The notes under the pieces are model-generated. The model was not told the origin of the DNA. It did not search any database and saw only the letters and a list, made by a program, of their open reading frames with translations. DNA of 64,000 nt, taken from an uncultured Actinomycetes bacterium (GTDB lineage: Bacteria > Actinomycetota > Thermoleophilia > UBA2241). Shown piece by piece: positions 6,716 to 59,962 of the stretch (position 1 is the first letter of the stretch; each line of letters begins with the position of its first letter). A program made the translations under genes and the position numbers. Location of the stretch: positions 576,001-640,000 of the forward strand of contig CAVPVX010000007.1 in NCBI GenBank assembly GCA_963709345.1, read 5' to 3'.

Positions 6716-6737
6716 TACGACCCCGTGGCCGTGGATC

Positions 6738-7445: not shown

Positions 7446-7561
7446 CTGGGCTCCTGTCCGCTGCTCTGAGTATACCCGAGGCCGGGCCGGCGACGGTGTC
7501 GGGGCTTCACGTCGCGCCCGCGCCTTGCCCGACCGGACGCCCATCTGCGAGACTGGGCATC

Positions 7562-8431: not shown

Positions 8432-8514
8432 GGGCCTCCGCCTGAGACAGACGCTGCGGCCGTCCCGGGCGCTGCTGAGGCGGCTCGGCGCCCGTCTCCC
8501 GCGCCGGACCCCGC

Positions 8515-9279
8515 TCAGCTCGGCGTCGTCGTGAGCGTCGTGATGTCGATGCGGTTGGCGGGGTCGATGGTGCGGTAGTACCAGTTGCCGCTCGCCGCAT
8601 CGTAGACGAGGTTCCAGTTGAGCTGGTTCGTCAGTACGCGGACCTGCCCCAGCGACTCGGTGACGGTCATGACGTAGCCGGCCGACGGACGCCCCTGCAG
8701 CGTCGCGCCGACCGGCTTGTAGAGGACGCGGTCGATGGGCTCCGAGTACTCCGCCGGGTCCAGCCCGAGATCGGTGTAGCAGTAAGGCGCCCACACGCGA
8801 GGCCACCTGCCGTCGGTGGCGCAGTAGTCGCGCATGAGCGCGATGAGGTCGCCGCTCACGGTGGCGAAGCCGGAGGAGGGAGACGCGGGATCGCCCGGGA
8901 TCGCGAAACCGCCGTCGCTCAGCCGGCCGATGAGGCAGTACGCCGGCGCCGCCGCGACGTAGCTGGAGGAGCCGGGGCTCGCCGCCGCCGAGTACTCCAT
9001 GAGTCCTGCGCCGAACGGATCGCGTGGCCACACGTCGACGTAGGTGCCCCTCAGGACGTCGAGGCTGCCTCTGGGCGGGTACGTGTCGTCGTCGACCGCG
9101 TAGGTCCTCACCCCGACCCGGATGGCATGGACGCCCTCCTTGACGGCGGCGTCCTTGGCCTTGTCTCTCTGCGTGAGGTACATGGGTGTCGCGATCGCCG
9201 CGAGAATCCCCACGACGATGACGACGATGAACATCTCGATGAGAGTGAAGCCGTCTCGCCGTCTCGCCGCTCTCGACAT
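8515..9279 (-). CDS. Type IV pilin / type II secretion pseudopilin-like protein
   Basis: Class III signal peptide RRRDG|FTLIEMFIVVIVVGILAAIA with E at +5. Confidence 0.85.
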   Translation of the reverse strand: MSRAARRRDGFTLIEMFIVVIVVGILAAIATPMYLTQRDKAKDAAVKEGVHAIRVGVRTYAVDDDTYPPRGSLDVLRGTYVDVWPRDPFGAGLMEYSAAASPGSSSYVAAAPAYCLIGRLSDGGFAIPGDPASPSSGFATVSGDLIALMRDYCATDGRWPRVWAPYCYTDLGLDPAEYSEPIDRVLYKPVGATLQGRPSAGYVMTVTESLGQVRVLTNQLNWNLVYDAASGNWYYRTIDPANRIDITTLTTTPS

Positions 9280-9475
9280 CACCTCCCCCCCATGGTCCTG
9301 GGTCTTCAAGCCTCCTGGACCAGGCATCGACAGATGACCGGCCTTCTTGCCGGCCCGACTGTCTGGGGCGACGTACCCGGCCGCAACGGGAAGGCCGGCG
9401 GGTGACCGGGCGTGCCGGGCGCCGAGTCGCCCGGGCGCGTCGGAGCGCCGGGCCCCAACCGCGCCGGGGCGCCCG

Positions 9476-10816: not shown

Positions 10817-10945
10817 GCACACTCCTTGCCGACGGTCGCCGGATTATAGCAATGACCGAGGTCGCCGCCCGACCTGCCGCCGGCGCGCCCGCGGCCGCAG
10901 GCGCCGGGCGTTGCCAGGAAGCGTAACGCTTTGGCCCGGCGGACC

Positions 10946-10973
10946 CTCATGCGCCGGCCCCCGCTGCCGATAC
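10946..10973 (+). promoter_or_regulatory. Putative sigma28/FliA/WhiG-type promoter
   Basis: CTCA-N16-GCCGATAC immediately upstream of a structured element. Confidence 0.35.
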
Positions 10974-11234
10974 CCAAGTCGAGACCGGGTAGGACAACTC
11001 ACCGGGCTACGGCCCGGCATCTCATCCTCTCTCTCAGCCGGGCCGGTCTCCTTCGATAGACACACGGACAGCCCGCATCCGAGTGAAGGCCCCCGCCGGC
11101 CCGGCGCTCTTCTCTTCCTCTTCTCCTCACGGCAGACGCCACGGCGTCGCGACGTCCACCCGCAACCCGCCGGCGGCCCTCGCAGACGAAGGTCGATGCG
11201 CTACACTAGCTCCGCGACCCGGCGGGAGGTACGA

Positions 11235-13271: not shown

Positions 13272-13513
13272 CGCCGAGCGCGACGCCGTCGCCCGCGCCG
13301 GCTACGCTCCCACGGTCTCCCTAGACGCCTGTACCATACGTGCCCGGCACGGCCGGTCGATGCCATGAACAGGAGACCGGAAGTGGCCTGAGAGAGGACC
13401 TTCCCAGTCCACCACAAGACTGGTCGGCGGCGCAAAGCGGGGGCTTGCACCGCCGGCCGTTCCACGTACGTAGGCCGGCGCCCGCGGCCGGCCTCCGCGC
13501 CCGACGATGCAGG

Positions 13514-13530
13514 ATACCCCCGGTGGGTAT
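13514..13530. promoter_or_regulatory. CsoR-type operator upstream of copA
   Basis: ATACCCCCGGTGGGTAT (TAC-C-tract/G-tract-GTA pseudo-palindrome), overlapping a TATACT -10 element. Confidence 0.75.
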
Positions 13531-13568
13531 ACTCGATATGGGTGCAACGTCGACACGCCCAAGAAGTG

Positions 13569-16037
13569 ATGGACGACCACGAGATCACGATAGAACTGCC
13601 GATCACCGGCATGACGTGCGCCAGTTGCGTGGCGAGGACCGAACGCGCCATCGCCAAGGTCGACGGCGTCGGCACGACCGCCGTCAACCTCGCCACCGAG
13701 AAGGCGACCGTCAAGTTCGACCCGCACGCAGCCTCCACCGGCGACCTGGTCGCAGCCGTCGAGGGCGCAGGCTACGGCGTCGTCACGGCCCGAGCGACCA
13801 TCCCGATCATCGGCATGACCTGCGCCAGCTGCGTCGCCCGCGTCGAGCGCGCCCTGAGCAAGCCTCCGGGCGTGCTCTCGGCAGACGTCAATCTGGCGAC
13901 CGAGAAGGCGACCGTCACCTACGTCGCCGGGCAGGCGACCTACGACGATCTCGTCTCCGCGGTGCGCGGCGCCGGGTATGAGGTCGCCCCGGCGGAGGCG
14001 GGCGAGGGCGGCGCCGCGACGGCGGTGACCGCCGAAGAGGCGGCTCGAGCCGCCGCCTACCGGCGGCTGAAACAGAAGGTCGTCGTCGGCTTCGTGCTCA
14101 GCGTCGTGATCTTCGTCGGCACCATGCAGCCGCACTGGTTCCCCTTCCTGCCGGAGTGGCTGCACAACGGCTACCTGCTCTGGGCCCTGGCCAGCATCGT
14201 CCAGTTCTGGGTCGGACGGCAGTTCTACACGACCGCCTGGTCGGCGCTGAAGCACGGCACCACGACCATGAACACCCTCGTGGCCATGGGGTCGTCGGCG
14301 GCCTACCTGTACAGCGTCCTGGGCGTCCTCTTCCCCGCCTTTTTCGCGCATCAGGGCCTCGGCGAGCCGATGTACTTCGACTCCTCGGCGTTCATCATCA
14401 CCCTGATCCTGCTCGGCCGGCTGCTCGAGGCGCGTGCCAAGGGGCAGACCGGCGCCGCGATCAAGGCGCTGATCGGGCTGCAGCCGCGCACGGCGCGCGT
14501 GGTGCGCGACGGAGCCGAGGTCGACGTCCCGGTCGCGGAGGTGCTCGTGGGGGACCACGTGGTCGTGCGCCCCGGTGAGCGCGTGCCGGTCGACGGCATC
14601 GTCGAGCACGGGGCGTCGCCGGTCGACGAGTCCATGCTCACCGGCGAGTCCATCCCGGTGGCCAAGGGCGCCGGCGACGAAGTCATCGGCGCCACCATGA
14701 ACACGACCGGTTCCTTCACCTTCACGGCGACGCGCGTCGGCTCCGAGACGGCGCTGGCGCAGATCATCAGGCTGGTCGAGCAGGCGCAGGGCTCCAAACC
14801 GCCGATCGCGCGGCTCGCCGACGTCATCGCCGCGTACTTCGTGCCGGCGGTGATCGTCATCGCCACCGTCACGCTCGTCGTCTGGCTGCTGCTCGGACCC
14901 CCGCCCGCGCTCAACTACGCCCTGCTGAACTTCGTCGCGGTCCTCGTCATCGCCTGCCCCTGCGCCCTCGGCCTGGCGACGCCGACGGCGATCATGGTCG
15001 GCACCGGCAAGGGCGCCGAGAACGGTGTGCTGATCCGAGACGGCGGCGCGCTGGAGACGGCCCACAAGCTCGACGCCGTCGTGCTCGACAAGACCGGGAC
15101 GATCACCGAGGGCAAGCCCCGTGTGACCGACGTCGTCCTGTTCGGCGCCGAGGACGGCGACGCGCCCCCCGGCGGCCTGGACGACGACGGTCTACTGCGC
15201 CTGGTGGCGGCCGCCGAACGCGGCAGTGAGCATCCACTGGCGGCGGCGATCCTCGCCGCCGCCGCCGAGCGCGGGGTCGACGTGCCCGCGGCGAGCGGCT
15301 TCGAGGCGATCGCCGGCCACGGCATCCGCGCCGAGGTCGACGGCCACACCGTCGTGGCCGGCAACGAGCGGCTCGCGGGAACCGCCGCGGCGGGATTCGT
15401 GCAGCGTCTTGCGTCCGACGGCAAGACCGTCGTGACCGTCGTCGTCGACGACGAACCGGTCGGAGCCATCGCCATCGCCGACACGGTCAAGCCGAGCTCG
15501 GCGGCTGCCATCGGCCGCCTCAGGCGGCTCGGCCTCGAGGTCGTGATGCTGACCGGCGACCACCGCCGCACGGCGGAGGCGATAGCCGGTCAGGTCGGTA
15601 TCGACCGCGTGGTGGCCGAGGTCCTGCCCGGGCAGAAGGCGGCCGTAGTCGCCGAGCTGCAGGGCGAGGGCAGGCGGGTGGCCATGGTGGGCGACGGCAT
15701 CAACGACGCTCCGGCGCTGGCGCAGGCCGACGTCGGCATCGCCATCGGCACGGGCACCGACGTCGCCATGGAGGCCAGCGACGTCACGCTCATGTCGGGC
15801 GACCTTGGCGGAGTCGCGACGGCCATCGAGTTGTCGCGAGCGACGATCCGCACCGTGAAGCAGAACCTCTTCTGGGCGTTCGCCTACAACGTCGCCTTGA
15901 TACCGCTGGCGGCGGGCGTCTTCTACCCGTCGTTCGGTATCCTGCTCAATCCCATCTATGCGGCGGCCGCAATGGGCCTGAGCAGCGTCACCGTGGTCAC
16001 CAACAGCCTCCGGCTGCGGCGCTTTCGCGCCGACTGA
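13569..16037 (+). CDS. copA: Copper-translocating P1B-type ATPase
   Basis: Two GMTCASC HMA domains, [25 protein letters not shown], and YN and MGLSS motifs. Confidence 0.95.
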
Positions 16038-16083
16038 GGCGCGGCCTCGGCCCGGGACGGAGGAGCGACCTAGACCCGTACGT

Positions 16084-16121
16084 GAAGAGAGGGACGATCC
16101 GCGCCTTGCGAACCGTCCCTC
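16084..16121 (-). terminator. Intrinsic terminator-like hairpin downstream of the small ORF
   Basis: Minus strand GAGGGACGGTTCGC-AAGGC-GCGGATCGTCCCTC-TCTTC gives 14 bp with two G-U pairs that form only on the minus strand. Confidence 0.6.
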
Positions 16122-16170
16122 AAGGCGGCGACGATGGCTTGTCTGCTCGTCCGTTCATCTTCCACCACGA

Positions 16171-16239
16171 TCACTTGCGGCGCTTGCCGTAGCGATCCTC
16201 CTGCTTGATGCGCTGTCTGGTGAAGTGCACAGGTCCCAT
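16171..16239 (-). CDS. Putative 22-aa basic small protein MGPVHFTRQRIKQEDRYGKRRK
   Basis: Perfect GAGGAGGTGA RBS, TAGACT -10 upstream and a strand-specific terminator downstream. Confidence 0.55.
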   Translation of the reverse strand: MGPVHFTRQRIKQEDRYGKRRK

Positions 16240-16310
16240 GGTCTCACCTCCTCGAGTGACGTGGTTCGCACTAAGAGTCTATCCGCCGGCACGCCGTAAA
16301 TAAACCTTGA

Positions 16311-16328
16311 TTGTGAACTACGTCACAT
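16311..16328. promoter_or_regulatory. Rex/CRP-type palindromic operator
   Basis: TTGTGAACTACGTCACAT contains a perfect TGTGA-N6-TCACA in an AT-rich divergent promoter region. Confidence 0.6.
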
Positions 16329-16494
16329 AATTCTCGGTCACCACTCCTTCGTGCCGGTGTCCAGAACGGCCAAGGAAGGTCCCAAATGTCAGTTCGCCCG
16401 TCCATTGTCACCCTCGGGGACCTGATGCGAGGATGAATGGAGCAGCGGCCGGCGGCGCCCTCCGTCACGCCGGCCGCCAGGCAGAAGGGGTCTC

Positions 16495-17163
16495 ATGCTC
16501 AGCGTTCTCGACCGGCACGCCATCGGACAACTGCTCCGCACCAAGGAGGTCGACGCCTGGGGCGTCGCCGCCAACGAGCCGCAGCTGCCCCTCGCGCCGG
16601 CGCATCCCCGAGCGATCGCGATCCTCATGCGCCTCGATCCTCTGGTCGTCCGCGGCCTGCGCCACGGTCCGACCCTCGACTACCAGCAGGAGTACTCACG
16701 CGTCAACCAGGCGCTCGACGACGCGACCGGGACCCTGGTCGACGTCCTTCGCGCCCACCACCACGCGGCGAAGCTCGTCCCCGCCACGGAGAACCAGGGC
16801 AACGGCCACCGGCCCTTCCCACACAAGACGGCGGCCACGAGCGCGGGCCTCGGCTGGATCGGCAAGACGGCGCTCTTCGTCTCGCCCGACTTCGGACCGG
16901 CCGTCCGGCTCGCCACCGTCTTCACCGACCTCGAACTGCCGCCGAGCGAGCCCATCCGTGAAGGCCGCTGCGGCGACTGCCGCGCCTGCGTGGACGCCTG
17001 CCCGGCTGGCTGTGGCAGGGACGTCCGCTGGAAGGCGGGCGTGGCCCGCGACCTGCTCTTCGATGCCGCCGCCTGCCGGCACCACATGACGAGCTTCAGC
17101 GGACTCGACGTCGAGATCTGCGGGATCTGCATAGCGGCCTGCCCGTACTCGCTGCGGCACTGA
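16495..17163 (+). CDS. QueG-like (epoxyqueuosine reductase family) 4Fe-4S dicluster protein
   Basis: HKTAATSAGLGWIGK, FGPAVRLATVFTD, CGDCRACVDACP and CGICIAACP. Confidence 0.8.
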   Translation: MLSVLDRHAIGQLLRTKEVDAWGVAANEPQLPLAPAHPRAIAILMRLDPLVVRGLRHGPTLDYQQEYSRVNQALDDATGTLVDVLRAHHHAAKLVPATENQGNGHRPFPHKTAATSAGLGWIGKTALFVSPDFGPAVRLATVFTDLELPPSEPIREGRCGDCRACVDACPAGCGRDVRWKAGVARDLLFDAAACRHHMTSFSGLDVEICGICIAACPYSLRH

Positions 17164-17214
17164 CGCCGCGCCGCGGCCGCCTGCCGCGGGCACCCGGCTT
17201 CGCTGAGAGACACC

Positions 17215-17271
17215 TTGTTCCTCCGCCTCCGCGGTGCTACTCTCACACCTTATTGAAAGCGGTTTTCACTT
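17215..17271 (+). promoter_or_regulatory. Sigma70-type promoter plus Zur box
   Basis: TTGTTC-N17-TACTCT, followed by TATTGAAAGCGGTTTTCACTT (TGAAA-N5-TTTCA), which resembles actinobacterial Zur sites. Confidence 0.7.
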
Positions 17272-17286
17272 GCAGAAAGGCTCCAT

Positions 17287-17739
17287 GTGACGCTCCACAC
17301 CGACGACATCGCGAGGACGATGGCGGACCACGGGCTGCGCCTCACGCGCCAGCGCCGCGCCGTCCTCGACGCGGTCACCCACGCCTCCTCAAGCGTGAGT
17401 GCGCTGCAGGTCTTCGACGCGGCCAGAGAGACCTGCCCTGAGCTCGGGCTGACGACCGTGTATCGGACGCTGGACGTCCTCAGCGAGCTCGGCGCCCTGC
17501 GCCGCGTCCACGGTCTCGACAACTGCGAGGCGTTCGTCCCCGCCGGCGCCGCGCACGGCCACACCGTCGTCTGCAGCTCGTGCGGCAGCACCACCGAGTT
17601 CACCGACTGCGACATGCATGCGGTCGTCGCCGCCGCGACGCGGCAGACCGGGTACCGGATCACGGAGCACTTCCTGCAGCTCACCGGCATCTGCTCCGCC
17701 TGCGCTGCCCGAGACACCTGCGCGGGGAGAGCCCAGTGA
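17287..17739 (+). CDS. zur: Fur-family regulator, probably Zur
   Basis: RLTRQR, TVYRTL, HGHTVVCSSC and C-terminal CSAC. Heads a Zn/Mn ABC operon. Confidence 0.8.
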   Translation: MTLHTDDIARTMADHGLRLTRQRRAVLDAVTHASSSVSALQVFDAARETCPELGLTTVYRTLDVLSELGALRRVHGLDNCEAFVPAGAAHGHTVVCSSCGSTTEFTDCDMHAVVAAATRQTGYRITEHFLQLTGICSACAARDTCAGRAQ

Positions 17740-18722
17740 CGCGCCGCTCCAGCCTGCGGGCCGTCCTCGCGCTCCTGCTCGTCTCCCTGTCGGTCACAGC
17801 CCTTCTCGTGGCGGCCGGCTGCGGCAAGGACAAGACGTCGGCGGAGACGGGCTCACTCGCGGTCTTCGCCACGGGCACGGTCCTCGCCGACGTCGCGCAG
17901 AACGTGGCCGGGGACCGCTTCACGGTCGAGTCGCTCGTCCCTCGCGACGCCGACATGCACGCCTACGAGCCCACCACCCGCGACCTCGCGCGCGTCAGCG
18001 AAGCCGATCTCTTCATCCTGAACGGCGGCGGCCTCGAACAGACGCTTGAGCCTACCTTGCGGAGCGTCGCCCCCGACACCACGTTCGTCGTGGCTGCCGA
18101 AGGACTGCCGCCGAGGACGCCGCAACCCAGCGAACCGCTTCGCGATCACGAGGGCGAGGACGCCGGCCACGAAGACGAGCATGCACACGAGACCGACCCG
18201 CACTTCTGGCTCGACCCGATGCGCGTGGTCAAGTACGTTGAGAACATCCGCGACGCGTACTCCGAGGCCGACCCGGGCGGCGCCGAGCAGTACCGCGCGA
18301 ATGCCGTGGCCTACATCGCCGAGCTGGAAGGCCTCGACGCCTGGATAGAGAATGAAGTGGCCACCCTGCCCGAGGAACGGCGCGTACTGATCATGAACCA
18401 CGTGAGCCACGGCTACTTCGCCGACCGCTACGGATTCCGCATCGCCGGGGCCGTCATCCCCAGCGTGTCGACCGGCGCGTCACCGACGGCCAAGCAACTC
18501 GCCGTACTGACCACGACGATTCGCGAGCAGGGCGTGCCGGTCATCTTCGTCCAGGGTATCGAGAACCCGCAGCTCGCGGAGCAGATCGCCGCCGAGACCG
18601 GCATCACCGTGGTCGACGACCTGCGCGCCGGCTCGCTGACCGAGGCGGACGGCGACGCGCCGACCTACATCGACATGATGAAGGTCGACGCCCGGAAGAT
18701 CGTCTCGGCGCTGCGGCAGTAG
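17736..18722 (+). CDS. znuA: Zn/Mn ABC transporter substrate-binding lipoprotein
   Basis: Lipobox AAGC, DMHAYEP, His/acidic loop and DPHFWLDP. Confidence 0.88.
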   Translation: MTRRSSLRAVLALLLVSLSVTALLVAAGCGKDKTSAETGSLAVFATGTVLADVAQNVAGDRFTVESLVPRDADMHAYEPTTRDLARVSEADLFILNGGGLEQTLEPTLRSVAPDTTFVVAAEGLPPRTPQPSEPLRDHEGEDAGHEDEHAHETDPHFWLDPMRVVKYVENIRDAYSEADPGGAEQYRANAVAYIAELEGLDAWIENEVATLPEERRVLIMNHVSHGYFADRYGFRIAGAVIPSVSTGASPTAKQLAVLTTTIREQGVPVIFVQGIENPQLAEQIAAETGITVVDDLRAGSLTEADGDAPTYIDMMKVDARKIVSALRQ

Positions 18723-18730
18723 AGGCTCCC

Positions 18731-19550
18731 TTGTCCGAGCCGTACCTGGCCATCGACGACGCGACCGCCGGCTATGACGGGCGCCCGGCTCTGTCCGGCG
18801 TGACGATGCACGTCCCCCACGGCGCACAGGTGGCGATCGTCGGCCCGAACGGCGCCGGCAAGTCCACCCTCTTCAAGGCCCTGGTCGGTTTGCTCCCTCT
18901 GCGCTCCGGGCGAATACTCGCTTCACGGCCGGCAACCCGGCGGCCAGACGGATCCCATCGCCTACGTGCCGCAGCGCGAGGAGATCGACTGGGGCTTCCC
19001 AGTGACGGTGCACGACGTCGTCATGATGGGTCGGTACGGTCGTCTGGGATGGTTCTCGCGGCCGCGGACGGCCGACCGCGAGGTGGTCGGGCGCTGCCTG
19101 GACGAGCTCGGCATCGCCGAGCTCGCGGGGCGCGCCATCGGCGAGCTGTCCGGCGGCCAGCAGCAGCGCGTGTTCCTGGCGCGAGCGCTCGCGCAGGAGC
19201 CGCACGTCCTGTTGCTCGACGAACCCTTCACCGGGGTGGACGTCGGCGCCCGCGAGGCGCTCCTCGACCTGCTCGCCAAGCTGCACGGGCAACAGATCAC
19301 CGTGCTCGTCAGCACCCACGATATGGACATCGCCGCGCGGCGCTTCGAGCTGGTCGCGCTCCTGAACGGCCGGCTGGTCGCCTACGGCGCGCCGGCCGAG
19401 GTCTTCACCCCAGAGCACCTGACCGAGGCCTTTGGCGGCCAGGCTCTCTTCCTCGACGGCATGGTCGTGATCGACCAGTGCTGTCCCGGCCACGTCGGCG
19501 ACGGCGAAGCCCACCGCCACAGTCACGAGCCGCACGCGGGGCCGCGATGA
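18731..19550 (+). CDS. znuC: Zn/Mn ABC transporter ATP-binding protein, with apparent single-base frameshift near 18920
   Basis: Walker A GPNGAGKST is in one frame. AYVPQR, LSGGQQQRVFLARAL and LLLDEP are in the +1 frame. Confidence 0.85.
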
Positions 19551-50361: not shown

Positions 50362-51816
50362 TCAGTCCGGCAGCAGCACGCTGAACGTCGAGCCCTCGCC
50401 TTCCACGCTGCGTACCTCGAAGCGGCCGCCGACGCGCTCGACGAGGCGCTTGACGATCGAGAGTCCGAGACCATTGCCCTCGAGCTCCCGCGTCTCGGCG
50501 CGCTTCTCGCGAAAGAACTCCTCGAAGAGGCGCGCCAGGTTGTCCGGCTTGATGCCGATGCCGGTGTCGACGACATCGAGACGCAGCCAGCCGTCGTCGA
50601 CGGCGCCGCGGATCGTCACAGCCCCGTCGTCACGATTGTACTTGACGGCGTTGCCGACGAGGTTGCTGAGGAGGAGCTGCAGATCGTCGGCCCGGATCAG
50701 TGCCGGGGGCAGGTCGGCGGCCAGTTCGGTCGTGACCGTCACGCCTCTCTGGGCGCCGCGCTCGCGAGCGAGCTCCACGACCTCCTCCAGGACGGGAGCG
50801 ACCGGGACGAGTTCGGGCTCCTCGCCCTCCGGGGCCTGCTCGCTTCGCGCCAGGGTGAGCAGGTCGCGGATGAGCTCGACCAGATTGTCGATGCGGTGAT
50901 CGGCGCGCGCGACCATCGGGAGGTAGGGATCGAGGTCCTCGCCCAGGCTCTTGTCGGTCACGACCTCGAGCAATCCCTTGATCGATCCGAGTGGGCTCTT
51001 GAGCTCGTGCACCATGGTGCGGATGAAGCGCTGCTTCTCCATCGCGAGGCGCCGGACTTCGCTGATGTCGCTGAGCGTCACGATGCGGCCGCGCGCCGCG
51101 CCGTTTTCGTCGCGGAAGGTGACGATGCTCGCCATCCACGCCTGCTCGCCGATCTCGAGCTGGCGCACGGTGCGGTCTTTCGCCGGCGCCTCAAGGTGCT
51201 CGCAGAGCGGCGCCAGGGCGCCGCCGCCAAGCAGTTCCCGCGCCGGCCGCATGAGCACCTCGTCGTCGCTCGACTCGAGCAGCTCCAGCATCGGCGGGTT
51301 GGCGAGCACGACGTCGCCGTCGCGGTTGACCACGAGCACCGCGTCGCGCAGCGAACTCACCAGGGAGTGCGTCTGCGTCTTCTCCTCGGCCAGAGCGAGC
51401 AGGCTGGCCTCGTGCTCGACGCGCAGGCGCTCCGCGTCGGCGCGCGCCTGCTTGTGCCGCAGCAACGTCGCCACGACTCCGAGAAGGTCGTCTGGGTTGA
51501 ACGGCTTGGGCAGGAAGAAGTCCACACCCTGCCGCGTCGCCGCGATCGCCGTGTCGATGTTCGCGTACGCGGTGATCATGCAGATCATGGCGTCGCAGCC
51601 GCGCTGCTTCATCGTCTGCAGCAGGCTGAGGCCGTCGGTGTCCGGCAGACGGTAGTCGAGCAGCGCGACATCGTAGTCGCGTTCCTCCAGACGCGCAAGC
51701 GCGCCGGCGCCGTCTTCGGCCTCGCCGACCTCGTACCCCTCCATCTCGAGGATGACGCGGATGCCGCTGCGCACGCCGTACTCATCGTCGACGATGAGGA
51801 TGCTGCCTTCGGGCAT
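50362..51816 (-). CDS. Hybrid sensor kinase REC-coiled coil-PAS-HisKA-HATPase
   Basis: ILIVDDE, LLDYRLP and PKPF, then HELKSPL, NLVGNAVKY, DTGIGI and GNGLGL. Confidence 0.9.
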   Translation of the reverse strand: MPEGSILIVDDEYGVRSGIRVILEMEGYEVGEAEDGAGALARLEERDYDVALLDYRLPDTDGLSLLQTMKQRGCDAMICMITAYANIDTAIAATRQGVDFFLPKPFNPDDLLGVVATLLRHKQARADAERLRVEHEASLLALAEEKTQTHSLVSSLRDAVLVVNRDGDVVLANPPMLELLESSDDEVLMRPARELLGGGALAPLCEHLEAPAKDRTVRQLEIGEQAWMASIVTFRDENGAARGRIVTLSDISEVRRLAMEKQRFIRTMVHELKSPLGSIKGLLEVVTDKSLGEDLDPYLPMVARADHRIDNLVELIRDLLTLARSEQAPEGEEPELVPVAPVLEEVVELARERGAQRGVTVTTELAADLPPALIRADDLQLLLSNLVGNAVKYNRDDGAVTIRGAVDDGWLRLDVVDTGIGIKPDNLARLFEEFFREKRAETRELEGNGLGLSIVKRLVERVGGRFEVRSVEGEGSTFSVLLPD

Positions 51817-52283: not shown

Positions 52284-54386
52284 TCACTCTCCTTGCGGGG
52301 CCTCAGGGCCTTTCGGCCCGGCCCCGGCGTCATTGGGATCGCCGATCATCGTCTTCTGCCCGGTGGCATGCGTACGGGGCAGCTCCACATGGAACGTCGT
52401 ACCGCGATCGGTCTCGCTGTCGAACCAGATGGTCCCGTTGTGCATCTTGACGATCCCGTAGCTTATGGGCAGGCCGAGGCCGGTACCCTTGCCGATGCTC
52501 TTGGTGGTGAAGAAGGGCTGGAAGACCTTGTCGCGGGCGCTCTGCGGGATGCCCGCGCCCTCGTCCCGCACCGACAGGCGGATGCGCCCGGTCTCGGGCA
52601 CCTCGCAGGCACTGACGGACACGGCGCCGTCGCGGCCCTCCATCGCCTCGACGCCGTTCTTCACGAGATTGATGAGGACCTGCGTCATCTGATCGCGGTC
52701 GAGGTCTGCCCGCAGACCCGGGGCCACGTCGACGATCAGCTCGACCGCGTGTCCACTCGGCTCGATGGTCGCGATCGCAGAATCGACCGCCTGACGGACG
52801 ACGGCGAGCACGTCTTCGGTCTGCAGGTGCACGCGGCTCTGGCGGGCGAAGTCGAGCAGGTTACCGACGATCTTCTTGCAGCGCTCGCCCTCTTCCGCGA
52901 CGAGCTTCAGGTCGTGGTCGAGGTCGTCGCGGTCGTTCAGTTTCTTCCCGAGAATGTGGATGTAGAGCAGGATCGTGCTCAGCGGGTTGTTGAGCTCGTG
53001 GGCGACGCCGGCCGCCATCTGGCCCATGCTGGCCAGCTTCTCGGTGTTGATGATGTGCCGGTGCACGTCGCGCAGGTCGCTCCAGGGCACGTTCAGCTCG
53101 GTGCAGACGCGCTCCGCCTGGTCGATCATGAAGGGCAGGCACATCGCGTCCTCCGCCATGCCGCAGTGCACGGCGACGGCCTTGGCCCGGCAGGTCTGGT
53201 AGCCGCACGCGCCGCAGTTGAGCTCGTCTTCGGGGAAGAACTTGTTGGTGCGCGCGAGGATCTCGCGGATCTCGTCCTCGGTCGGCTCGGTGAGGCGCTG
53301 GTCGTCGCTCACGTAGGCGCGGCCGAGCGGCAGGCCGGCGAAGCCCGCACGTGCGTCGTCGATCGGCTCGTCCGCGGCGGCGTCCGCGGCTTCCTGCTCC
53401 CGCCGGCACTCCGCGACGTAGTCGCTCACGCGGCGCTTGCGCAAGAGGCCGGGTTCTGAGGAGTTGATGCCCGGCCCACAGTAGCACCCGCGACACATGA
53501 GAGCCTCGACGAGCAGAGCACGGTCGGTCTCGAGCTCGCCGAGGCTGTCGAGCACCGCGACGGTCTCGTCGTGACCGCTGACCACCAGCACGTCGGGGTC
53601 GAGGATGCCGCGGTCCATGTTGGCGGTCTCGAGCAGGCCGCCGGGCAGCGGGAAGACCCGCGCCCGCCCCGCAGCCGGCTCGTCCCACACGGCCGCCGCG
53701 GCCATCTCCGGGACGACACCCCGTTCGGCCAGCAGGCGGTGTGCCTCCTGGAGCGTCAGGACCTCGTCGATGACGTCCGGCAGCAGCTCGTCGTGGGCCT
53801 CGGCCTTCTTGGCGACGCACGGACCGACGAACACGCAGTTGACCTCGTCGCCGTGAAGACCCTTGACGGCCAGAGCCGCGGCGATCATCGGCGAGACGAT
53901 CGGCACCAGCCGGTCGACGAACTCGGGACGATACTTGCGCACGTACTCCGCCACGGCCGGGCAAGCGGTGGCGATATGGATCCCGGTCGGGTTGGCGGCG
54001 AGATACTCTTCGTAGGCGCGACTCACCAGGTCGGCGCCTTGAGCGACCTCGACGACGTAGTCGAAGCCCGCGGCCTTGAAGGCGCCGACGACCTGCTCCG
54101 GCGGCGCATCGAAGCCGGCGGGGAACGACGGCGCCAGCAGTGCCGCGACCGGTACGTCCTCCTCGAGGAGCCAGGATGCGCGTTCGAGGCCGCTCGCATA
54201 CGTCTTGGCGTTCTGCGAGCACACCAGCGTGCAGTTGCCGCAGGAGATGCAGCGCTCGTGGACCACGACAGCCTGCCCGTCCTCCACGCGGATCGCCTGG
54301 GCCGGGCAGTCGCGGACGCATGTGTAGCAGCGCCGGCAGTTCTGCTTGATCGTCCTGATGACGCCTTCCATGGGAGCCTCCGTCAC
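52284..54386 (-). CDS. Sensory-type (group C) [FeFe]-hydrogenase fused to a histidine kinase
   Basis: 2x[4Fe-4S] N-terminus, H-cluster-like motifs TACP / GPCVAKK / EALMCRGC and NCGACGYQTC FeS domain, then AHELNNPL, N box, DEGAG, FFTTK and GTGLG. Confidence 0.88.
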   Translation of the reverse strand: MTEAPMEGVIRTIKQNCRRCYTCVRDCPAQAIRVEDGQAVVVHERCISCGNCTLVCSQNAKTYASGLERASWLLEEDVPVAALLAPSFPAGFDAPPEQVVGAFKAAGFDYVVEVAQGADLVSRAYEEYLAANPTGIHIATACPAVAEYVRKYRPEFVDRLVPIVSPMIAAALAVKGLHGDEVNCVFVGPCVAKKAEAHDELLPDVIDEVLTLQEAHRLLAERGVVPEMAAAAVWDEPAAGRARVFPLPGGLLETANMDRGILDPDVLVVSGHDETVAVLDSLGELETDRALLVEALMCRGCYCGPGINSSEPGLLRKRRVSDYVAECRREQEAADAAADEPIDDARAGFAGLPLGRAYVSDDQRLTEPTEDEIREILARTNKFFPEDELNCGACGYQTCRAKAVAVHCGMAEDAMCLPFMIDQAERVCTELNVPWSDLRDVHRHIINTEKLASMGQMAAGVAHELNNPLSTILLYIHILGKKLNDRDDLDHDLKLVAEEGERCKKIVGNLLDFARQSRVHLQTEDVLAVVRQAVDSAIATIEPSGHAVELIVDVAPGLRADLDRDQMTQVLINLVKNGVEAMEGRDGAVSVSACEVPETGRIRLSVRDEGAGIPQSARDKVFQPFFTTKSIGKGTGLGLPISYGIVKMHNGTIWFDSETDRGTTFHVELPRTHATGQKTMIGDPNDAGAGPKGPEAPQGE

Positions 54387-56113
54387 ACTGCCGCCGTATC
54401 GTGCCCGCGGCGGCGGCTCGTGTAGCTGCGATGCAGGAGGCGATGCGAGACCTCGCTCAGCGGGCGCCCGAGGAGGCCCTCGTACAGCGCCCGCAGCTCG
54501 GCGTTCTCGTGCGAGCGCCGAGCCCGGGAGCGCCTGTCCACTTCGTAGAGGCGCTGCAGCCGCTCCTTGATCGCCGCGGCGTCGGTGTCGTAGGGCTGGC
54601 CGCCGCCGCCGATGCAGCCGCCGGGGCAGCTCATCACTTCGACGAAGTGCACCGGCGGATCGGCGCTCAACAGCTCGTCGAGGACGTCCTTGACGCGGCC
54701 GAGACCGTTGACGACGGCGAGGCCGAGCTCGGCCTCACCGGCGCTCACCGCGAACCGGCGCACGCCCTCGGAGCCGCGAGCCTCGCTCACCTTGGGGCCG
54801 CCGGCGAGCTCCTCGCCGGCGGCGAGCAGGTAGGCGGTCCGCAGCGCAGCCTCCATGACGCCGCCGCTGCCGGCGAAGAGGCGACCGGCGCCGCTCGCCT
54901 CGGAGAAGGGCGGGTCGAGCGGCTCCAGCTCGGTCGCGTGCGCGAAATCCACGCCGAACCGGCCCCAGAGGTGCTCCAGTTCACGCGTGGTGAGCACGTA
55001 GTCCACGTCACCGAGGTCTTGTGCCTCGAACTTCTTCGCCGTGCAGGGCATGATCGAGACGACCACGAGCTTGTCCCGGTCGACCCCCGCCCGATCGGGG
55101 TAGATCTCCTTGATCAGCGCGCCGGCCATCTGCTGCGGGCTCTTGCAGGTCGAGAGGTGCGGGATCAACTCCGGGTGGTGTGTCTCGACGAAGTGTACCC
55201 ACGCCGGCGAGCAGCTCGTGAACATCGGCAGCACGCCGCCGTTCTCGATGCGGTCCAGCAGCTCGCTGCCCTCTTCCATGATCGTGAGGTCGGCGGCGAA
55301 GCCGGTGTCGAAGACGGCGTCGAAGCCGACCCGCTTGAGGGAGGAGGCGAGGCGCTCCAGCATTGTGCGCACGCCCTCGCTCTTGCTGTGGCCTTCGAGA
55401 AGCGTCGCCGGCACGGCGGGCGCCACCTGGGCGACGACCACGGTGTCGGGATCCGCGAGCGCGTCGACCACCTCGTCGACCTGGTCGCGTTCGACGATGG
55501 CGCCGGTCGGGCAGACCCGGGCGCACTGACCGCAGAACACGCAGTCGCTGACGTTGAGTCCAAGGCTGAAGCCCGGCGCGACCCTGGTCTGGAAGCCACG
55601 CCCGACGTAGTCGATGGCGCCCACACCCTGGATGTCGTGGCAGACGGTGACGCAGCGGCCACAGAGGACGCACTTGTCGGGGTCGCGCCAGAGTGCCGGC
55701 GAGCTGATGTCCATGGGGTGATGCTTGACCGCCCCGACGTACCGGCGCCGGCGCACGCCGAGGTCGGCGGCGAGATCCGCGAGCTCGCAGTCGCCGCCTC
55801 GCGCGCAGGAGAGGCAGTCCTGCGGATGACTCGCGACCAGCAGTTCCAGGATCGCGCGCCGCGCCTTGAGCACGCGCGGCGTGTGCGTCTGGACGCTGAG
55901 GCCGTCGCGCGCCTCGAGGGTGCAGCTCGTCTGCAGGCGCGGAACGCCCTCGACCTCGACGATGCACAGGCGGCACGAGGCCGACGGTGACGGCGCCCAG
56001 TCAAGGGAACACAGGTGCGGGATCTCGATACCGGCGCGGCGGGCCACCTGCAGGACGGTCTCGCCCTCCGTCACCTCGATCTCTCTGCCGTTGATGGTGA
56101 TGCTCATGGTCAT
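54383..56113 (-). CDS. hydA: [FeFe]-hydrogenase catalytic subunit (group A, bifurcating type)
   Basis: [2Fe-2S] domain, His-ligated HxxxCxxCxxxxxC, two [4Fe-4S], TSCSP, MPCTAKK, EVMSCPGGCIGGGGQP and SHEN..LLH tail. Confidence 0.93.
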   Translation of the reverse strand: MTMSITINGREIEVTEGETVLQVARRAGIEIPHLCSLDWAPSPSASCRLCIVEVEGVPRLQTSCTLEARDGLSVQTHTPRVLKARRAILELLVASHPQDCLSCARGGDCELADLAADLGVRRRRYVGAVKHHPMDISSPALWRDPDKCVLCGRCVTVCHDIQGVGAIDYVGRGFQTRVAPGFSLGLNVSDCVFCGQCARVCPTGAIVERDQVDEVVDALADPDTVVVAQVAPAVPATLLEGHSKSEGVRTMLERLASSLKRVGFDAVFDTGFAADLTIMEEGSELLDRIENGGVLPMFTSCSPAWVHFVETHHPELIPHLSTCKSPQQMAGALIKEIYPDRAGVDRDKLVVVSIMPCTAKKFEAQDLGDVDYVLTTRELEHLWGRFGVDFAHATELEPLDPPFSEASGAGRLFAGSGGVMEAALRTAYLLAAGEELAGGPKVSEARGSEGVRRFAVSAGEAELGLAVVNGLGRVKDVLDELLSADPPVHFVEVMSCPGGCIGGGGQPYDTDAAAIKERLQRLYEVDRRSRARRSHENAELRALYEGLLGRPLSEVSHRLLHRSYTSRRRGHDTAAV

Positions 56114-56118: not shown

Positions 56119-58113
56119 TCAGGCGACGGCCAGCACGGCCTGTTTGGGGCAGGCGTCGGCGCAGGCGCCGCAGCCGGTGCACCGGTCGACGATGATGGAG
56201 TGCGCGAACGTGCGCTTGCCGATGATCGCCCCCGACGGGCAGTTCCTGGCGCAAAGGGTGCAGCCGGTGCAGAGTTCGGGGTCGATGTCGTACACGCGCA
56301 GACCCTGGCAGGCGCCGGCCGGGCAGACACCCTCCATGATGTGCGCCTCGTACTCGTCGCGGAAGAAGCGCAGCGTGCTGAGCACGGGGTTCGCGGCCGA
56401 CTGGCCGAGGCCGCAGAGCGACGTCTCCCTGACGACCTCCGCCAGCTCCTCCAGATGGAGGATGCCGCGGAAGCGCTCCAGCCGGCGCAGATCGTCGCCG
56501 ACGGGGCGCTCGGTGATCTCGGTGAGGATCTCGAGCATGCGCGTCGTACCCTCGCGACACGGGGTGCACTTGCCACAGCTCTCGTTGCGGATGAACCCAA
56601 TGAAGAACTTCGCAACGTCGACCATGCAGGAACGCTCGTCCATGACGACCATGCCGCCGGAGCCCATCATCGCGCCGAGCTCCTGGAGTGTCCCGTAGTC
56701 GGTGGCGACGTCGAGCAGATCGTCGGGGATGCAGCCGCCGCTCGGGCCGCCGATCTGGACGGCCTTGATGTGGTGGCCGGCGGGAGCGCCGCCGCCGATG
56801 TCGTAGACGACCTCGCGCAGCGGGACGCCGACCGGGACCTCGACGAGGCCCGTGTTGCGCACGCGGCCGCTGAGCGCGAAGACCTTGGTGCCGGCCGCGT
56901 CGCCGCGGCCGAGGCCCGCGAACCACTCGGCGCCGCCGTTCAGGACGGCCGGGATGTTGGCCAGCGTCTCGACGTTGTTGAGCACGGTCGGGCAGCCGTG
57001 CAGACCGGAGACCGCCGGGTAGGGCGGGCGGGGACGGGGCATGCCGCGCCCACCCTCGATGCTCGCCAGGATCGCCGTCTCCTCGCCGCAGACGAAGGCA
57101 CCGGCGCCCATCTTGATGGTGATGTCGAAGTCGACGAGGCTGCCGAGGATGTTCTTGCCGAGCAGCCCGGCGGCGCGGCACTGCTCGATCGCGTCGCGCA
57201 GCCGCTCTACCGCGAGTGGGTACTCGGCGCGACAGTACACATAGCCCCTGGTCGCGTTGATCGCGTAGGCGGCGACGATCATGCCCTCGACCACCCGGAA
57301 CGGGTCGCTCTCGAGTACGGCGCGGTCCATGAATGCGCCGGGATCGCCCTCGTCGGCGTTGCAGATCAGGTACTTCTGCGCCTTCGGCTGGTCGAGCGCG
57401 ACCTGCCACTTCCGCCCGGTCGGGAAGCCGGCGCCGCCACGCCCGCGGAGGCCGGAGGCGGTGACCTCGTCGCAGACCTCCTGCGGGGTCATCGTCGCCA
57501 GCGCCTTGGCGGCGGCGCGGAAGCCGCCGGCCGCGAGCGCTGCGTCGAGGCTCGCCGGGTCGACGACGCCGCAGTTCTCGAGCACCACCTTCGTCTGGCG
57601 CGCGAAGAACGGGGTCTCGGCGATGGGCGGTACGTCACGGTAGAGCCCGTCGGGATCGTCGTAGCGCCCGAGAAGGAAGCGGTTGCGCAGCTCCCCCCGC
57701 CCGAACACGGCCTCCAGGAACTCGTCGGCGGAGTCGGGACCGAGGTCGCAGTAGCTCAGTCGCACGCCTTCCTCGGTGACCACGTCGACGAAGACCTCGC
57801 GCTGACAGTAGCCGACGCAGCCGGTCTCGAGGATCGGCACGCTGAGCCCGCAGCGCTCGAAGTAGGCCTTCATCTTCGCGATCACCGTGGTCGCGCCGTT
57901 GGCGCGCCCGCAGGTGCCGGCACCGACGAAGACGACCATGCCGTCGCCGCCGAGCCGGGCGCGTGCGAGGCGCCGGGCGCGCTTCGAAGCACATGCCTCG
58001 TCGTCGTGACAGACGGGGCCGCGCTCGATGCAGGCGACCAGGTCGGAGCACGGCGTGGACGGCGCGTGCGTGCAACGGTCGCAGCAGGGCTCCGTGAGCA
58101 GGCTCTCGTTCAT
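56119..58113 (-). CDS. hydB: NuoF-like flavin subunit HydB
   Basis: SGLRGRGGAGFPTG, NADEGDPGAFMDR, GAFVCGEET, GGPSGG, ESCGKCTPCR and C-terminal 2x[4Fe-4S]. Confidence 0.93.
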   Translation of the reverse strand: MNESLLTEPCCDRCTHAPSTPCSDLVACIERGPVCHDDEACASKRARRLARARLGGDGMVVFVGAGTCGRANGATTVIAKMKAYFERCGLSVPILETGCVGYCQREVFVDVVTEEGVRLSYCDLGPDSADEFLEAVFGRGELRNRFLLGRYDDPDGLYRDVPPIAETPFFARQTKVVLENCGVVDPASLDAALAAGGFRAAAKALATMTPQEVCDEVTASGLRGRGGAGFPTGRKWQVALDQPKAQKYLICNADEGDPGAFMDRAVLESDPFRVVEGMIVAAYAINATRGYVYCRAEYPLAVERLRDAIEQCRAAGLLGKNILGSLVDFDITIKMGAGAFVCGEETAILASIEGGRGMPRPRPPYPAVSGLHGCPTVLNNVETLANIPAVLNGGAEWFAGLGRGDAAGTKVFALSGRVRNTGLVEVPVGVPLREVVYDIGGGAPAGHHIKAVQIGGPSGGCIPDDLLDVATDYGTLQELGAMMGSGGMVVMDERSCMVDVAKFFIGFIRNESCGKCTPCREGTTRMLEILTEITERPVGDDLRRLERFRGILHLEELAEVVRETSLCGLGQSAANPVLSTLRFFRDEYEAHIMEGVCPAGACQGLRVYDIDPELCTGCTLCARNCPSGAIIGKRTFAHSIIVDRCTGCGACADACPKQAVLAVA

Positions 58114-58583
58114 GCCGCCTCCTCGGCGTCCGTCGTCACCGCGTCCAGCAGGTCGTCCAGCTTCTGCGCTGTCAGGTGGCCGTAGAACTCGCCGTCCAGC
58201 TTGATCACCGGCGCGATGGAGCAGGCGCCGAGGCAGGCGACCTCGACGACGGTGAAGCGGCCGTCGCCCGAGTTGCCGTCGTCGCGCAGCTTGAGACGCC
58301 GCTTCAGGTGCTGCGCCAGCACCAGACTCTGCTTCACGTGGCAAGCGGTGCCGCGGCAGACCTCGATCACGTGCTCACCGAGCGGCGCGAAGCGGAACTG
58401 GTTGTAGAAGGTGGCCACTCCGAACACCCGGCTCACCGGCGTGCCCAGAGCGCTCGCGACCTTCGCCATCGCCTCGACCGAGACGAAGCCCTCCGCTCCC
58501 TGGATCTCCTGCAGCAGCGGGATCAACTGGTCGCGGGTCAGCTCGTCACCGCGGGTGGCGATGATCATGTCGACCGCGGTCAT
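58110..58583 (-). CDS. hydC: NuoE-like [2Fe-2S] subunit HydC
   Basis: LIPLLQEIQ, VATFY, CRGTACH and CLGACSIAP. Confidence 0.93.
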   Translation of the reverse strand: MTAVDMIIATRGDELTRDQLIPLLQEIQGAEGFVSVEAMAKVASALGTPVSRVFGVATFYNQFRFAPLGEHVIEVCRGTACHVKQSLVLAQHLKRRLKLRDDGNSGDGRFTVVEVACLGACSIAPVIKLDGEFYGHLTAQKLDDLLDAVTTDAEEAA

Positions 58584-58586: not shown

Positions 58587-59012
58587 TCACGCTTCCTTGG
58601 TCGCCGCGGGCGTGTCGGCGTCGGCGAGCAGCGCGGCGATGGCGTCGGCGAGGTCGGCCAGCTTGACCGGCTTCTCGAAGAACTTGGCGGCCGGCCACTC
58701 GCGGTACATCATCGGCTCGAAGATGTGGGTCTTGGTCTCGAGTTCCTTGGTGAAACCGCTCATGATGATCACCGGGATAGCCTCGGTCTCGGGGTCGTCG
58801 CGGAGCTTGTAGGCGACGTTGAAGCCGTCGGTGTCGTAGTCCATCATGATGTCGAGCACGACGAGGTCGGGCCGCTGCTTCTTCAGTTGCTCTCGCGCCT
58901 CGATGCCGCTGTGGGCCGTGTCCACGGTGTAGCCGCGGGCCTCCAGGAACGCCTTGACGGACGTCACCAGGTCGCGGTCGTCGTCGACCATCAGGATGCG
59001 CTTGGCCTTCAC
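58587..59012 (-). CDS. Single-domain response regulator
   Basis: VDDD, VLDIMM, MSG and EKPV. AGGAGG RBS before GTG. Confidence 0.88.
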   Translation of the reverse strand: MKAKRILMVDDDRDLVTSVKAFLEARGYTVDTAHSGIEAREQLKKQRPDLVVLDIMMDYDTDGFNVAYKLRDDPETEAIPVIIMSGFTKELETKTHIFEPMMYREWPAAKFFEKPVKLADLADAIAALLADADTPAATKEA

Positions 59013-59080: not shown

Positions 59081-59098
59081 CAGTGAAACTGTTCACAG
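59081..59098. promoter_or_regulatory. Rex-type operator upstream of the hydrogenase operon
   Basis: CAGTGAA-ACTG-TTCACAG resembles TTGTGAA-N4-TTCACAA. Confidence 0.7.
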
Positions 59099-59143: not shown

Positions 59144-59899
59144 TCATGACCGAATCCCCTGCCCCGCCGGCCGGACCGGCGCGGCCTCGGAGTCGGCGCC
59201 CCCCCGAACGCCGGCCACTTCGTCGCCGGCGACCGGGCCGTGCACCAGAAACGAGAGCAACTCGAGCTTGGATGCGATATCCGTGTGTTCTACGTAGCAG
59301 CCCTCGGGCGGCGTGACCCGCTTGGGCACGAAGTTCAGGATCGCGCGCGCGCCGGCCGCGGCGACTCGGTCGACCAACGCCTGGAGACCTTCCGGCCGGG
59401 TGGCGACGACCGCCATGTGGATGTCGAGCTCGCGCAGGACGGTCTCGAGATGGTCGACGTGATAGCAGCGCCGGCCGGCGTACATGCGGCCGACCTTCTC
59501 GGCGTCGACGTCGAAGGCGGCGGCGATATGGAAGCCGCGCTCCTCGAAGCCGCGGTAGGAGAGCAGGGCGCGTCCGAGATCACCGACCCCGAAGAGCGCG
59601 ATGGACTGGGTCTCGTCGGTGCCCATGATGCGGCTGATCGTGCGGCTCATCTGGAAGACGTTGTAGCCGCGGGAGATGTGCCCGAAGGTCCCGAAGGAGG
59701 CGAGGTCACGGCGAAGCTGCGCCGGCGTGACGCCGACGAGCTCGGCAAGCTGCTGGGAGTGGATGTCCTCGACACCGTCAGTGTGGAGCTCCTCCAACAC
59801 CTTCCGATAGACGCTGAGACGCTCGACCGTCTGCAGGGAAACCCGCTTCTCCGGGCGATGCAACTGCTTCGGTGCGGTGCCGCCGGTCTGTTCGCTCAT
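59144..59899 (-). CDS. rex: Redox-sensing transcriptional repressor Rex
   Basis: TVERLSVY, SQQLA, QLRRDLASFG..GY, GVGDLGRAL and ILNF.P. Confidence 0.93.
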   Translation of the reverse strand: MSEQTGGTAPKQLHRPEKRVSLQTVERLSVYRKVLEELHTDGVEDIHSQQLAELVGVTPAQLRRDLASFGTFGHISRGYNVFQMSRTISRIMGTDETQSIALFGVGDLGRALLSYRGFEERGFHIAAAFDVDAEKVGRMYAGRRCYHVDHLETVLRELDIHMAVVATRPEGLQALVDRVAAAGARAILNFVPKRVTPPEGCYVEHTDIASKLELLSFLVHGPVAGDEVAGVRGGADSEAAPVRPAGQGIRS

Positions 59900-59926
59900 G
59901 CTCAACGGTCCTCCCACGTCTCCTCC

Positions 59927-59962
59927 AGCTGTGACTCTATTCACAGCTCTACGCGCTGTCAA
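59927..59962 (-). promoter_or_regulatory. rex promoter overlapped by a Rex operator (autoregulation)
   Basis: TTGACA-N17-TAGAGT on the minus strand. The palindrome AGCTGTGA-CTCTAT-TCACAGCT covers the -10. Confidence 0.8.

Follow-up and report, generated by a model that had tools for sequence, protein, structure and literature searches.

The open reading frame at positions 52284-54386 (minus strand) of the stretch analysed here (the window: 64,000 nucleotides of contig CAVPVX010000007.1, assembly GCA_963709345.1, from an uncultured Actinomycetes bacterium) probably encodes a soluble sensor kinase made of a single polypeptide, in which a putative sensory [FeFe] hydrogenase of the group C type (HydS-like) serves as the input and would report H2. 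The hydrogenase-like module keeps every metal-binding Cys and is without a fast proton relay. The identification is correct and the mechanism plausible; the fusion design itself is widespread and already catalogued.

Domain order and metal-site motifs of the sensor kinase

The frame ran for 700 codons without interruption and encoded, in order, two [4Fe-4S] motifs, an H-cluster domain (H-domain), a C-terminal cluster domain (FeS), a helical linker and the two domains of a histidine kinase transmitter (Table 1). The Pfam match to Fe_hyd_lg_C reached 121 bits, the curated cut-off being 22.1, and PAS families were absent from the protein at E <= 0.01. Direct fusion of an H-cluster domain to a kinase without PAS, as proposed in the preliminary description made from the letters of the window, was therefore borne out by the Pfam order and by the lack of PAS. 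The FeS domain and the complete HisKA/HATPase of that description were also found, with only about 35 residues between the FeS and HisKA matches, while its "short helix" turned out to span 47 residues, counted from the final cluster Cys up to the phospho-accepting His. The GTG at 54386, from which the frame had been listed, overlaps the hydA stop. Judging from the GGAGG five bases before it, the ATG at 54371 appears to be the likelier start; the resulting protein has 695 residues, as in database entry P0005, and the sensor start lies at or 11 bases beyond the hydA stop.

Motifs were read by aligning the sensor with the three catalytic HydA proteins of its own genome, and their conservation was counted over 116 relatives of at least 640 residues (62-89% identity; the best 120 matches, four shorter ones dropped). 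All three sensory-type motifs quoted beforehand were present. The first, ATACPAV instead of the canonical TSCCPxW, retained the ligand Cys and displayed Ala141 at the position of the proton-relay Cys299 of CpI; this residue was Ala in 111 of the 116 relatives and Thr in five. In the second, VGPCVAKKAE (canonical MPCxxKxxE), the Cys, Lys and Glu were kept by 116/116 relatives and Met353 was replaced by Gly188, again in 116/116. Lys193 stands at the position of CpI Lys358, which holds a cyanide ligand. The third motif, EALMCRGCYCGPG (EALMCRGCYCG), departed from the canonical ExMxCxxGCxxG through Leu296 at the Met497 position, retained in 114/116 relatives, and through its spacing, as two residues separated Cys298 from Cys301 where the canonical motif has three. 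The motif is thus CxGC and not CxxGC, one residue shorter than canonical, a change that had been passed over when EALMCRGC was listed.

The H-cluster Cys C142, C190, C298 and C301 (CpI Cys300, 355, 499 and 503) were each found in 116/116 relatives and in 125-126 of the 126 rows of five labelled groups. Gly188, Lys193, Glu294 and His463 were likewise each invariant (116/116), and the eight ferredoxin-domain Cys were each present in 115-116 relatives. Because the metal-ligand Cys, Gly188, Lys193 and His463 did not vary among the 116 relatives, the motif features are not due to chance. All four Cys of the C-terminal cluster, C391x2Cx4Cx16C416, were kept in 116/116 close relatives and in 126/126 rows across the labelled groups; Cx2Cx4Cx16C is the motif uniting groups C and D, and its presence supports the identity given to the sensor half. 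Two further Cys, Cys428 in the linker and Cys503 in the second helix of the dimerisation and histidine phosphotransfer (DHp) domain, were found in 116/116 members of the close family. A general thiol switch through this pair was dropped since wider relatives do not conserve it; a family-specific thiol pair is possible.

According to the literature consulted, only TmHydS (Thermotoga maritima, group C, M2f) and TamHydS (Thermoanaerobacter mathranii, group D, M2e) have been characterised so far, and their residues are given here from published accounts and not from our own alignment. TmHydS likewise comprises two N-terminal [4Fe-4S] motifs, an H-domain and a C-terminal Cx2Cx4Cx16C, displays Ala at the proton-relay Cys and Gly at Met353 (its second-sphere residues are A131, G177 and S267), and is encoded beside a bifurcating-type group A hydrogenase. 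It differs by ending in PAS with no kinase, whereas here the cluster domain leads straight into HisKA/HATPase, and by Ser instead of Leu at the Met497 position. TamHydS shares with the sensor the lack of PAS, the C-terminal motif and the Leu at Met497, and differs by having no fused output domain. It matures, carries Ser at Met353 (a hydroxyl residue there being typical of group D), and its gene adjoins those for a trimeric group A hydrogenase and for a kinase-like ATPase. Group D has Ser/Thr at Met353, whereas Gly was found in this protein and in 32 of 33 direct-fusion rows. Judged from aligned residues, the sensor appears group-C-like at two positions (Ala, Gly) and shares its Leu with TamHydS, so that the resemblance to HydS proteins noted earlier holds for Cys299 and Met353 as in TmHydS and for Met497 as in TamHydS.

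The kinase half displayed the H-box AH463ELNNPL, of which H463 and ELNNPL were kept in 116/116 relatives. In its ATPase domain, D608, G610, G612, F625 and G636-L639 were invariant and N573 and N577 nearly so (71-sequence alignment). The AlphaFold2 model, built on 71 aligned sequences, had a mean predicted local distance difference test (pLDDT) of 90.7 and a predicted template-modelling score (pTM) of 0.75. Foldseek placed its N-terminal half on the [FeFe] hydrogenase 1hfe_L (target TM-score, TMt, 0.68; root-mean-square deviation 3.6 over 372 columns) and its C-terminal half on 9jfj_A, the kinase core of ZraS (TMt 0.80, with 31% identity across the fold match). By sequence, the best solved match of the sensor half was T. 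maritima HydA (E 9e-14) and that of the transmitter was again ZraS 9jfj_A (E 3e-33). The kinase half is thus like ZraS/NtrB-type transmitters, with the difference that the protein has neither a periplasmic sensor nor a membrane span.

Linker phase and the output-fused relatives

Query residues 1-440 were compared with 1.84 billion cluster representatives (full scan; 50%-identity clusters), which yielded 4450 matches at E <= 1e-3 and 769 at E <= 1e-30. The best 150 representatives were labelled by hand from Pfam tables, at E <= 1e-6 and then at E <= 1e-8, PAS being under-detected in the second half. Direct HisKA/HATPase fusions accounted for 36 of them and direct sigma-54 ATPase fusions for 11; PAS or GAF stood between sensor and kinase in eight, three combined PAS with a sigma-54 ATPase, three had a GGDEF output and two an MCP signalling domain. 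The remainder were 68 proteins of 540-660 residues with only a tail of about 150-180 residues (PAS where detected) and 19 short forms and fragments under 540 residues. The occurrence of the same module on kinases, sigma-54 ATPases (14), GGDEF (3) and MCP (2) fits a general-purpose input domain. Sigma-54 activator ATPases are directly fused to the same sensor in other lineages, though the genome studied here is without sigma-54.

The design is not new, as HydDB holds a group C1 "histidine kinase-linked (putative)" beside C2 (chemotactic) and C3 (phosphatase-linked), a 2024 survey of Hydrogenedentota describes kinase-domain forms, and 36 of the 150 representatives were direct fusions. That survey describes group C proteins that carry HATPase or histidine-kinase domains and are encoded beside group A3 genes, and it names them T subunits (BfuT). 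Both catalogue entries resemble the present protein in linking a hydrogenase-like sensor to a histidine kinase beside group A3 genes; their accounts are genomic only, and the present copy belongs to an uncultured, high-G+C lineage of Actinomycetota that bears the label Thermoleophilia. Reviews and a Cell 2024 paper present group C as PAS-fused. Our literature searches, which covered papers without their supplements, returned no biochemical study of any kinase-fused form, in agreement with the earlier statement that such forms are predicted and little tested.

A FastTree phylogeny of the sensor half comprised 133 rows, 19 of 152 having been left out for want of a match covering query residues 30-410; it was a quick, unrooted tree with only local Shimodaira-Hasegawa-like support, and TmHydS and TamHydS were not among its rows. 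A branch with support 99 separated 66 rows (63 with a PAS tail and 3 short) from 67 rows that included all output-fused forms. A branch with support 97 encompassed 42 rows, among them 32 of 33 direct kinase fusions and both copies of the window's own genome. With a regular expression, the third-motif Cys were found three residues apart in 62 of 66 PAS-tail rows, and in 51 of the 60 output-fused ones they were two residues apart. CCxGC, read in five more of the output-fused rows, and CDSC, read in one, were counted as two-residue spacing, and three remained CxxGC, giving approximate counts, made partly by eye, of about 57/60 output-fused against 4/66 PAS-type rows with the shorter spacing. Three of the four PAS-tail exceptions (P0166, P0208, P0242) fell on the output-fused side of the tree, which together with the counts indicates that a one-residue deletion between H-cluster ligands marks that side. 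The PAS-type proteins of about 570 residues and the output-fused proteins thus stood on opposite sides of the branch with support 99, CxxGC versus CxGC. We did not find this CxGC signature of the output-fused clade stated in the literature consulted on the family.

Linker length, counted in direct kinase fusions from the fourth C-terminal Cys to the phospho-His, was readable in 34 of 38 rows. It was 47 in 18 rows (the query with its close kin making up six of these), 40 in four, 54 in four, 33 in two and 68 in one, while lengths of 27, 34, 38, 48 and 49 occurred once each. Linkers were in phase with 47 in 29 of the 34 rows, and 11 of the 16 rows with another length differed from it by a multiple of seven (binomial p 1e-6 against one in seven, a value that is overstated since some rows are tree sisters). 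Of the four rows that were not machine-read, one gave 33 by eye and two gave 24, and the fourth was a HisKA_3 kinase. The secondary structure of the model showed a helix at 417-430, a break at NVPW and a helix at 435-482 running through His463. Steps of seven residues are as a continuous coiled coil requires, and the heptad-phased linker supports a direct mechanical link between cluster domain and kinase. These steps, too, were not found stated in the literature consulted on the family.

Operon, synteny and genome context

The sensor kinase gene is the sixth in a minus-strand row of eight: rex, REC, hydC, hydB, hydA, sensor kinase, REC and REC-PAS-kinase (Table 1). The row is limited below by arginase and aminotransferase genes on the opposite strand and above by a homocysteine methyltransferase gene. 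The rex gene probably begins at an in-frame GTG at 59917 or ATG at 59899, and the hydB start is provisional, since the listed frame reaches 58344 and overlaps hydC. The best solved match of hydA was 8a6t_A, a bifurcating HydA1 (E 1.4e-162). The ATG of the downstream receiver lies three bases past the sensor stop, with AAGGAG within the end of the sensor gene.

Table 1. Coordinates of the sensor kinase gene, its domains and the neighbouring genes and sites in the window.
Feature	Position	Strand	Evidence or detail
Rex-operator-like palindrome, just upstream of rex, over TTGACA-type promoter region	59930..59945	-	one mismatch to TGTGAANNNNTTCACA
rex, redox-sensing repressor	59144..59962	-	Put_DNA-bind_N + CoA_binding
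Second Rex-operator-like palindrome, rex/first receiver gap	59082..59097	-	one mismatch
REC-only receiver, about 141 residues from GTG 59012 behind AAGGAGGA	58587..59012	-	Response_reg E 9e-19, start context
hydC, NuoE-like thioredoxin-type [2Fe-2S] subunit	58110..58583	-	2Fe-2S_thioredx E 1.8e-43
hydB, NuoF-like flavoprotein with NADH_4Fe-4S and two Fer4	56119..58113	-	Complex1_51K E 1.1e-45
hydA, catalytic group A type (Fer2_4, NADH-G, 2xFer4, H-domain, small-subunit tail)	54383..56113	-	Pfam
Sensor hydrogenase-histidine kinase fusion	52284..54386	-	Pfam, relatives' alignment, AlphaFold2 model, start context
Two [4Fe-4S] motifs (C17, C20, C23, C27; C46, C49, C52, C56), residues 14-60	54207..54347	-	Pfam Fer4_9/Fer4_10
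H-domain Fe_hyd_lg_C, residues 80-305; Cys142, Cys190, Cys298, Cys301	53472..54149	-	Pfam, alignment, fold match
C-terminal cluster domain FeS PF04060, residues 389-418, C391x2C394x4C399x16C416	53133..53222	-	Pfam
Helical linker, fourth cluster Cys to phospho-His, residues 417-462	53001..53138	-	model, length comparison
HisKA dimerisation/phospho-acceptor domain, residues 454-516, His463	52839..53027	-	Pfam E 7e-15, 55 bits; ZraS alignment
HATPase_c catalytic domain, residues 563-672, N, G1, F, G2 boxes	52371..52700	-	Pfam E 2e-26, 93 bits
REC-only receiver, 144 residues	51846..52280	-	Pfam
Hybrid REC-PAS-HisKA-HATPase kinase	50362..51816	-	Pfam

With the Rex-operator consensus TGTGAANNNNTTCACA and at most one mismatch allowed, four matches were found in the window against 0.28 expected. 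Under the same limit, 24 of 43 related loci had a site upstream of rex and 9/43 had one in the gap between rex and the receiver, 29 further sites being scattered elsewhere across 880 kb; conservation is thus moderate for the first site and weak for the second. The match at 28619 lies inside an enolase gene and was taken as chance. A third palindrome (16312-16327, one mismatch) is flanked by the gene of a heavy-metal P-type ATPase (13542-16037) and by an open reading frame at 16495-17163 with a weak 4Fe-4S match.

Relatives of the whole protein were numerous: of 8000 candidates scored, 5753 matched at E <= 1e-10. The H-domain, FeS, HisKA and HATPase families were harbored by 118 of the best 120, and the source names of these 120 were "Thermoleophilia bacterium" or "NtrC family sensor kinase"; the fragments P0125 and P0127 came from the scan of cluster representatives and are not among the 120. 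Gene order was compared over 52 related loci from uncultured assemblies labelled Thermoleophilia, Gaiellales, Actinomycetes or Actinomycetota, with two labelled delta-proteobacterial, and was counted in loci with at least 2.2 kb downstream (46) or at least 6 kb upstream (41). The REC-PAS-kinase followed the sensor in 46/46 loci and the small receiver in 44/46, while rex and the upstream receiver were found in 41/41 and hydCBA (hydC and hydB included) in 39/41. Loci L054 and L059, which are without hydCBA (see below), are also without the small downstream receiver. In the class, the sensor half (E <= 1e-30) was encoded in 77 of 301 sampled genomes, all within two families (40/55 and 36/55 genomes, the window's genome excluded; 76/110 together), and it was not found in the 190 searched genomes from ten other families.

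The assembly (3.11 Mb, 98% complete) gave six H-domain matches. HydG, HydF and HydE scored above their NCBIfam cut-offs at C7:314849-320488, and the organism can therefore build an H-cluster. The maturase genes follow a second hydrogenase region (L016; C7:294001-313999, features at 1018-19293), which begins with rex, a 522-residue GHKL-ATPase/Fer4/truncated H-domain/FeS protein, a PHP protein, a second GHKL protein and hydC. Next come a fusion of hydB with a GltD-like pyridine-nucleotide reductase, hydA, a sensor kinase paralogue of 684 residues, a REC-kinase hybrid and a third hydCBA. The paralogue had the same five domains, with 45% identity in the sensor half, and fell in a different sub-branch of the tree, so that the duplication is old.

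All three catalytic HydA proteins (54383-56113; L016:9300-11098; L016:17356-19293) read (T/S)SCSP and not TSCCP in their first motif, the window copy reading TSCSPAW. CpI numbering would put this Ser at the cluster-ligand Cys300. TSCSP also occurs in the solved chain 7q4v_A, HydA1 of Acetobacterium woodii, and 8a6t_A and 7p5h_A have TSCCP.

No match to Sigma54_DBD was obtained in this 98%-complete genome, and Sigma54_activat gave only weak generic AAA matches. Of the earlier label "NtrB-type", the sequence kinship thus remains, the kinase being closest to the NtrB-like ZraS, and nothing of its regulatory sense. As sigma-54 is lacking and the neighbouring receivers are without an output domain, the partners are not NtrC-type activators.

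Proposed signal path, alternative readings and significance

In the mechanism that we consider, H2 made or used by the neighbouring HydABC would react slowly at the H-cluster, and the resulting change in the H-domain would be passed through the C-terminal cluster domain, acting as a rigid hub rather than as a redox relay. The signal may then run along the coiled coil into the dimer's DHp domain and change the autophosphorylation of His463. The phosphate would go to the neighbouring REC domains, those of the stand-alone receivers and that of the REC-PAS-kinase, a second kinase that could be controlled in this way, and hydrogenase expression or activity would be set jointly by H2 (through the relay) and by NADH/NAD+ (through Rex). 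A mechanical role of the C-terminal cluster domain is preferred because the corresponding [4Fe-4S] cluster of TamHydS stays oxidised under 1 atm H2 and the C379A variant retains activity; its authors argue that the role of this cluster is structural and not that of a redox signal. The earlier suggestion that the redox state of the FeS domain could trigger the kinase is disfavoured on the same account. HoxBC-HoxJ (Ralstonia/Cupriavidus, [NiFe] group 2b) is alike in outline: a histidine kinase governing the hydrogenase genes receives the H2 signal from a slow hydrogenase. It differs by its unrelated metal site, by separate sensor and kinase proteins joined in a complex, and by a PAS-like domain on the kinase.

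Several observations weigh against H2 sensing along this path. Every characterised hydrogenase has a third motif one residue longer than the CxGC seen here. CpI M497L has been reported without a properly integrated [2Fe] site, although TamHydS, with its natural Leu, does mature, and the literature searched shows no kinase-fused member binding the [2Fe] subcluster or answering H2. The 2024 Hydrogenedentota survey hardly found standard H-cluster motifs in "group C1" and doubted H2 sensing. Among the folded parts of the model, confidence is lowest along the linker (pLDDT 70-79 over residues 431-460). The row contains no DNA-binding response regulator, only Rex having a DNA-binding domain according to Pfam. 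Finally, at L041 and L062, and at the shorter L054 and L059, no hydCBA stands between the regulatory genes, although rex, REC, sensor kinase and REC-PAS-kinase are all present.

Some of these points would suit a redox sensor kinase that reads ferredoxin or the electron pool and not H2, its site holding only a [4Fe-4S] or an altered cofactor and its four clusters being read via the N-terminal ferredoxin domain. This is a serious alternative, to which we attach a clear minority of the probability. The shorter third motif in about 57/60 output-fused against 4/66 PAS-type rows argues for it, as do the replacement of the proton-relay Cys and of both Met around the diiron site, the doubt of the survey about H-cluster motifs and an operon already redox-wired through Rex. 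A plain cubane site would nevertheless hardly explain why Lys193, Gly188 and the four Cys are kept in 116/116 relatives. TmHydS and TamHydS, with similar substitutions, do take up the [2Fe] cofactor, HydEFG are kept in the genome, and hydrogenase genes are adjacent in 39/41 loci.

The gene order leaves room for a different role, that of an additional structural or catalytic HydABC subunit (the "BfuT" idea) whose kinase half modifies the complex or its partners directly. The sensor gene shares an operon with hydA and opens at the stop of that gene or 11 bases after it, the survey names such proteins the T subunit of Bfu clusters, and Rex is the sole DNA-binding regulator in the cluster. We consider this quite improbable, as L041, L054, L059 and L062 keep the regulators without hydCBA, which makes the regulatory genes a unit of their own, and as the transmitter has all two-component kinase motifs and receivers on both sides. 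A decayed or non-functional hydrogenase remnant fused by chance has next to no probability, although the first and third motifs depart from the canonical forms: the frame is intact, the cofactor ligands are kept in 116/116 relatives down to 62% identity, 4450 representatives were found (E <= 1e-3), and 77/301 genomes of the class, with 76/110 in its two families, encode the sensor half. This conservation excludes the remnant. A putative H2-sensing hydrogenase of the group C type joined to its kinase is thus the reading we retain as the most probable.

The output-fused proteins as a whole (kinase, sigma-54 ATPase, GGDEF, MCP) might conceivably form a sensor class of their own, characterised by CxGC and a metal site unlike the canonical H-cluster, with the signal leaving via the fourth C-terminal Cys that caps the heptad-phased coiled coil; we regard this as rather unlikely. 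If true, such a class could sense something other than or beyond H2, such as electron-pool redox, CO or O2, and the present kinase would offer the easiest way to assay it.

H2 sensing is a putative function of the group C and D [FeFe] hydrogenases, and the 2026 study of TamHydS closes by stating that partners and signalling path must still be identified. The points added here are CxGC in the output-fused clade, linker steps of seven and a second, anciently diverged paralogue beside another hydrogenase. For the family, the CxGC signature, the seven-residue linker steps and the conserved rex-REC-hydCBA-sensor-REC-(REC-PAS-kinase) wiring may be useful markers. A sensor and a histidine kinase in one chain provide a direct read-out through autophosphorylation, and hundreds of relatives give the same handle, many of them from organisms that are easier to work with.

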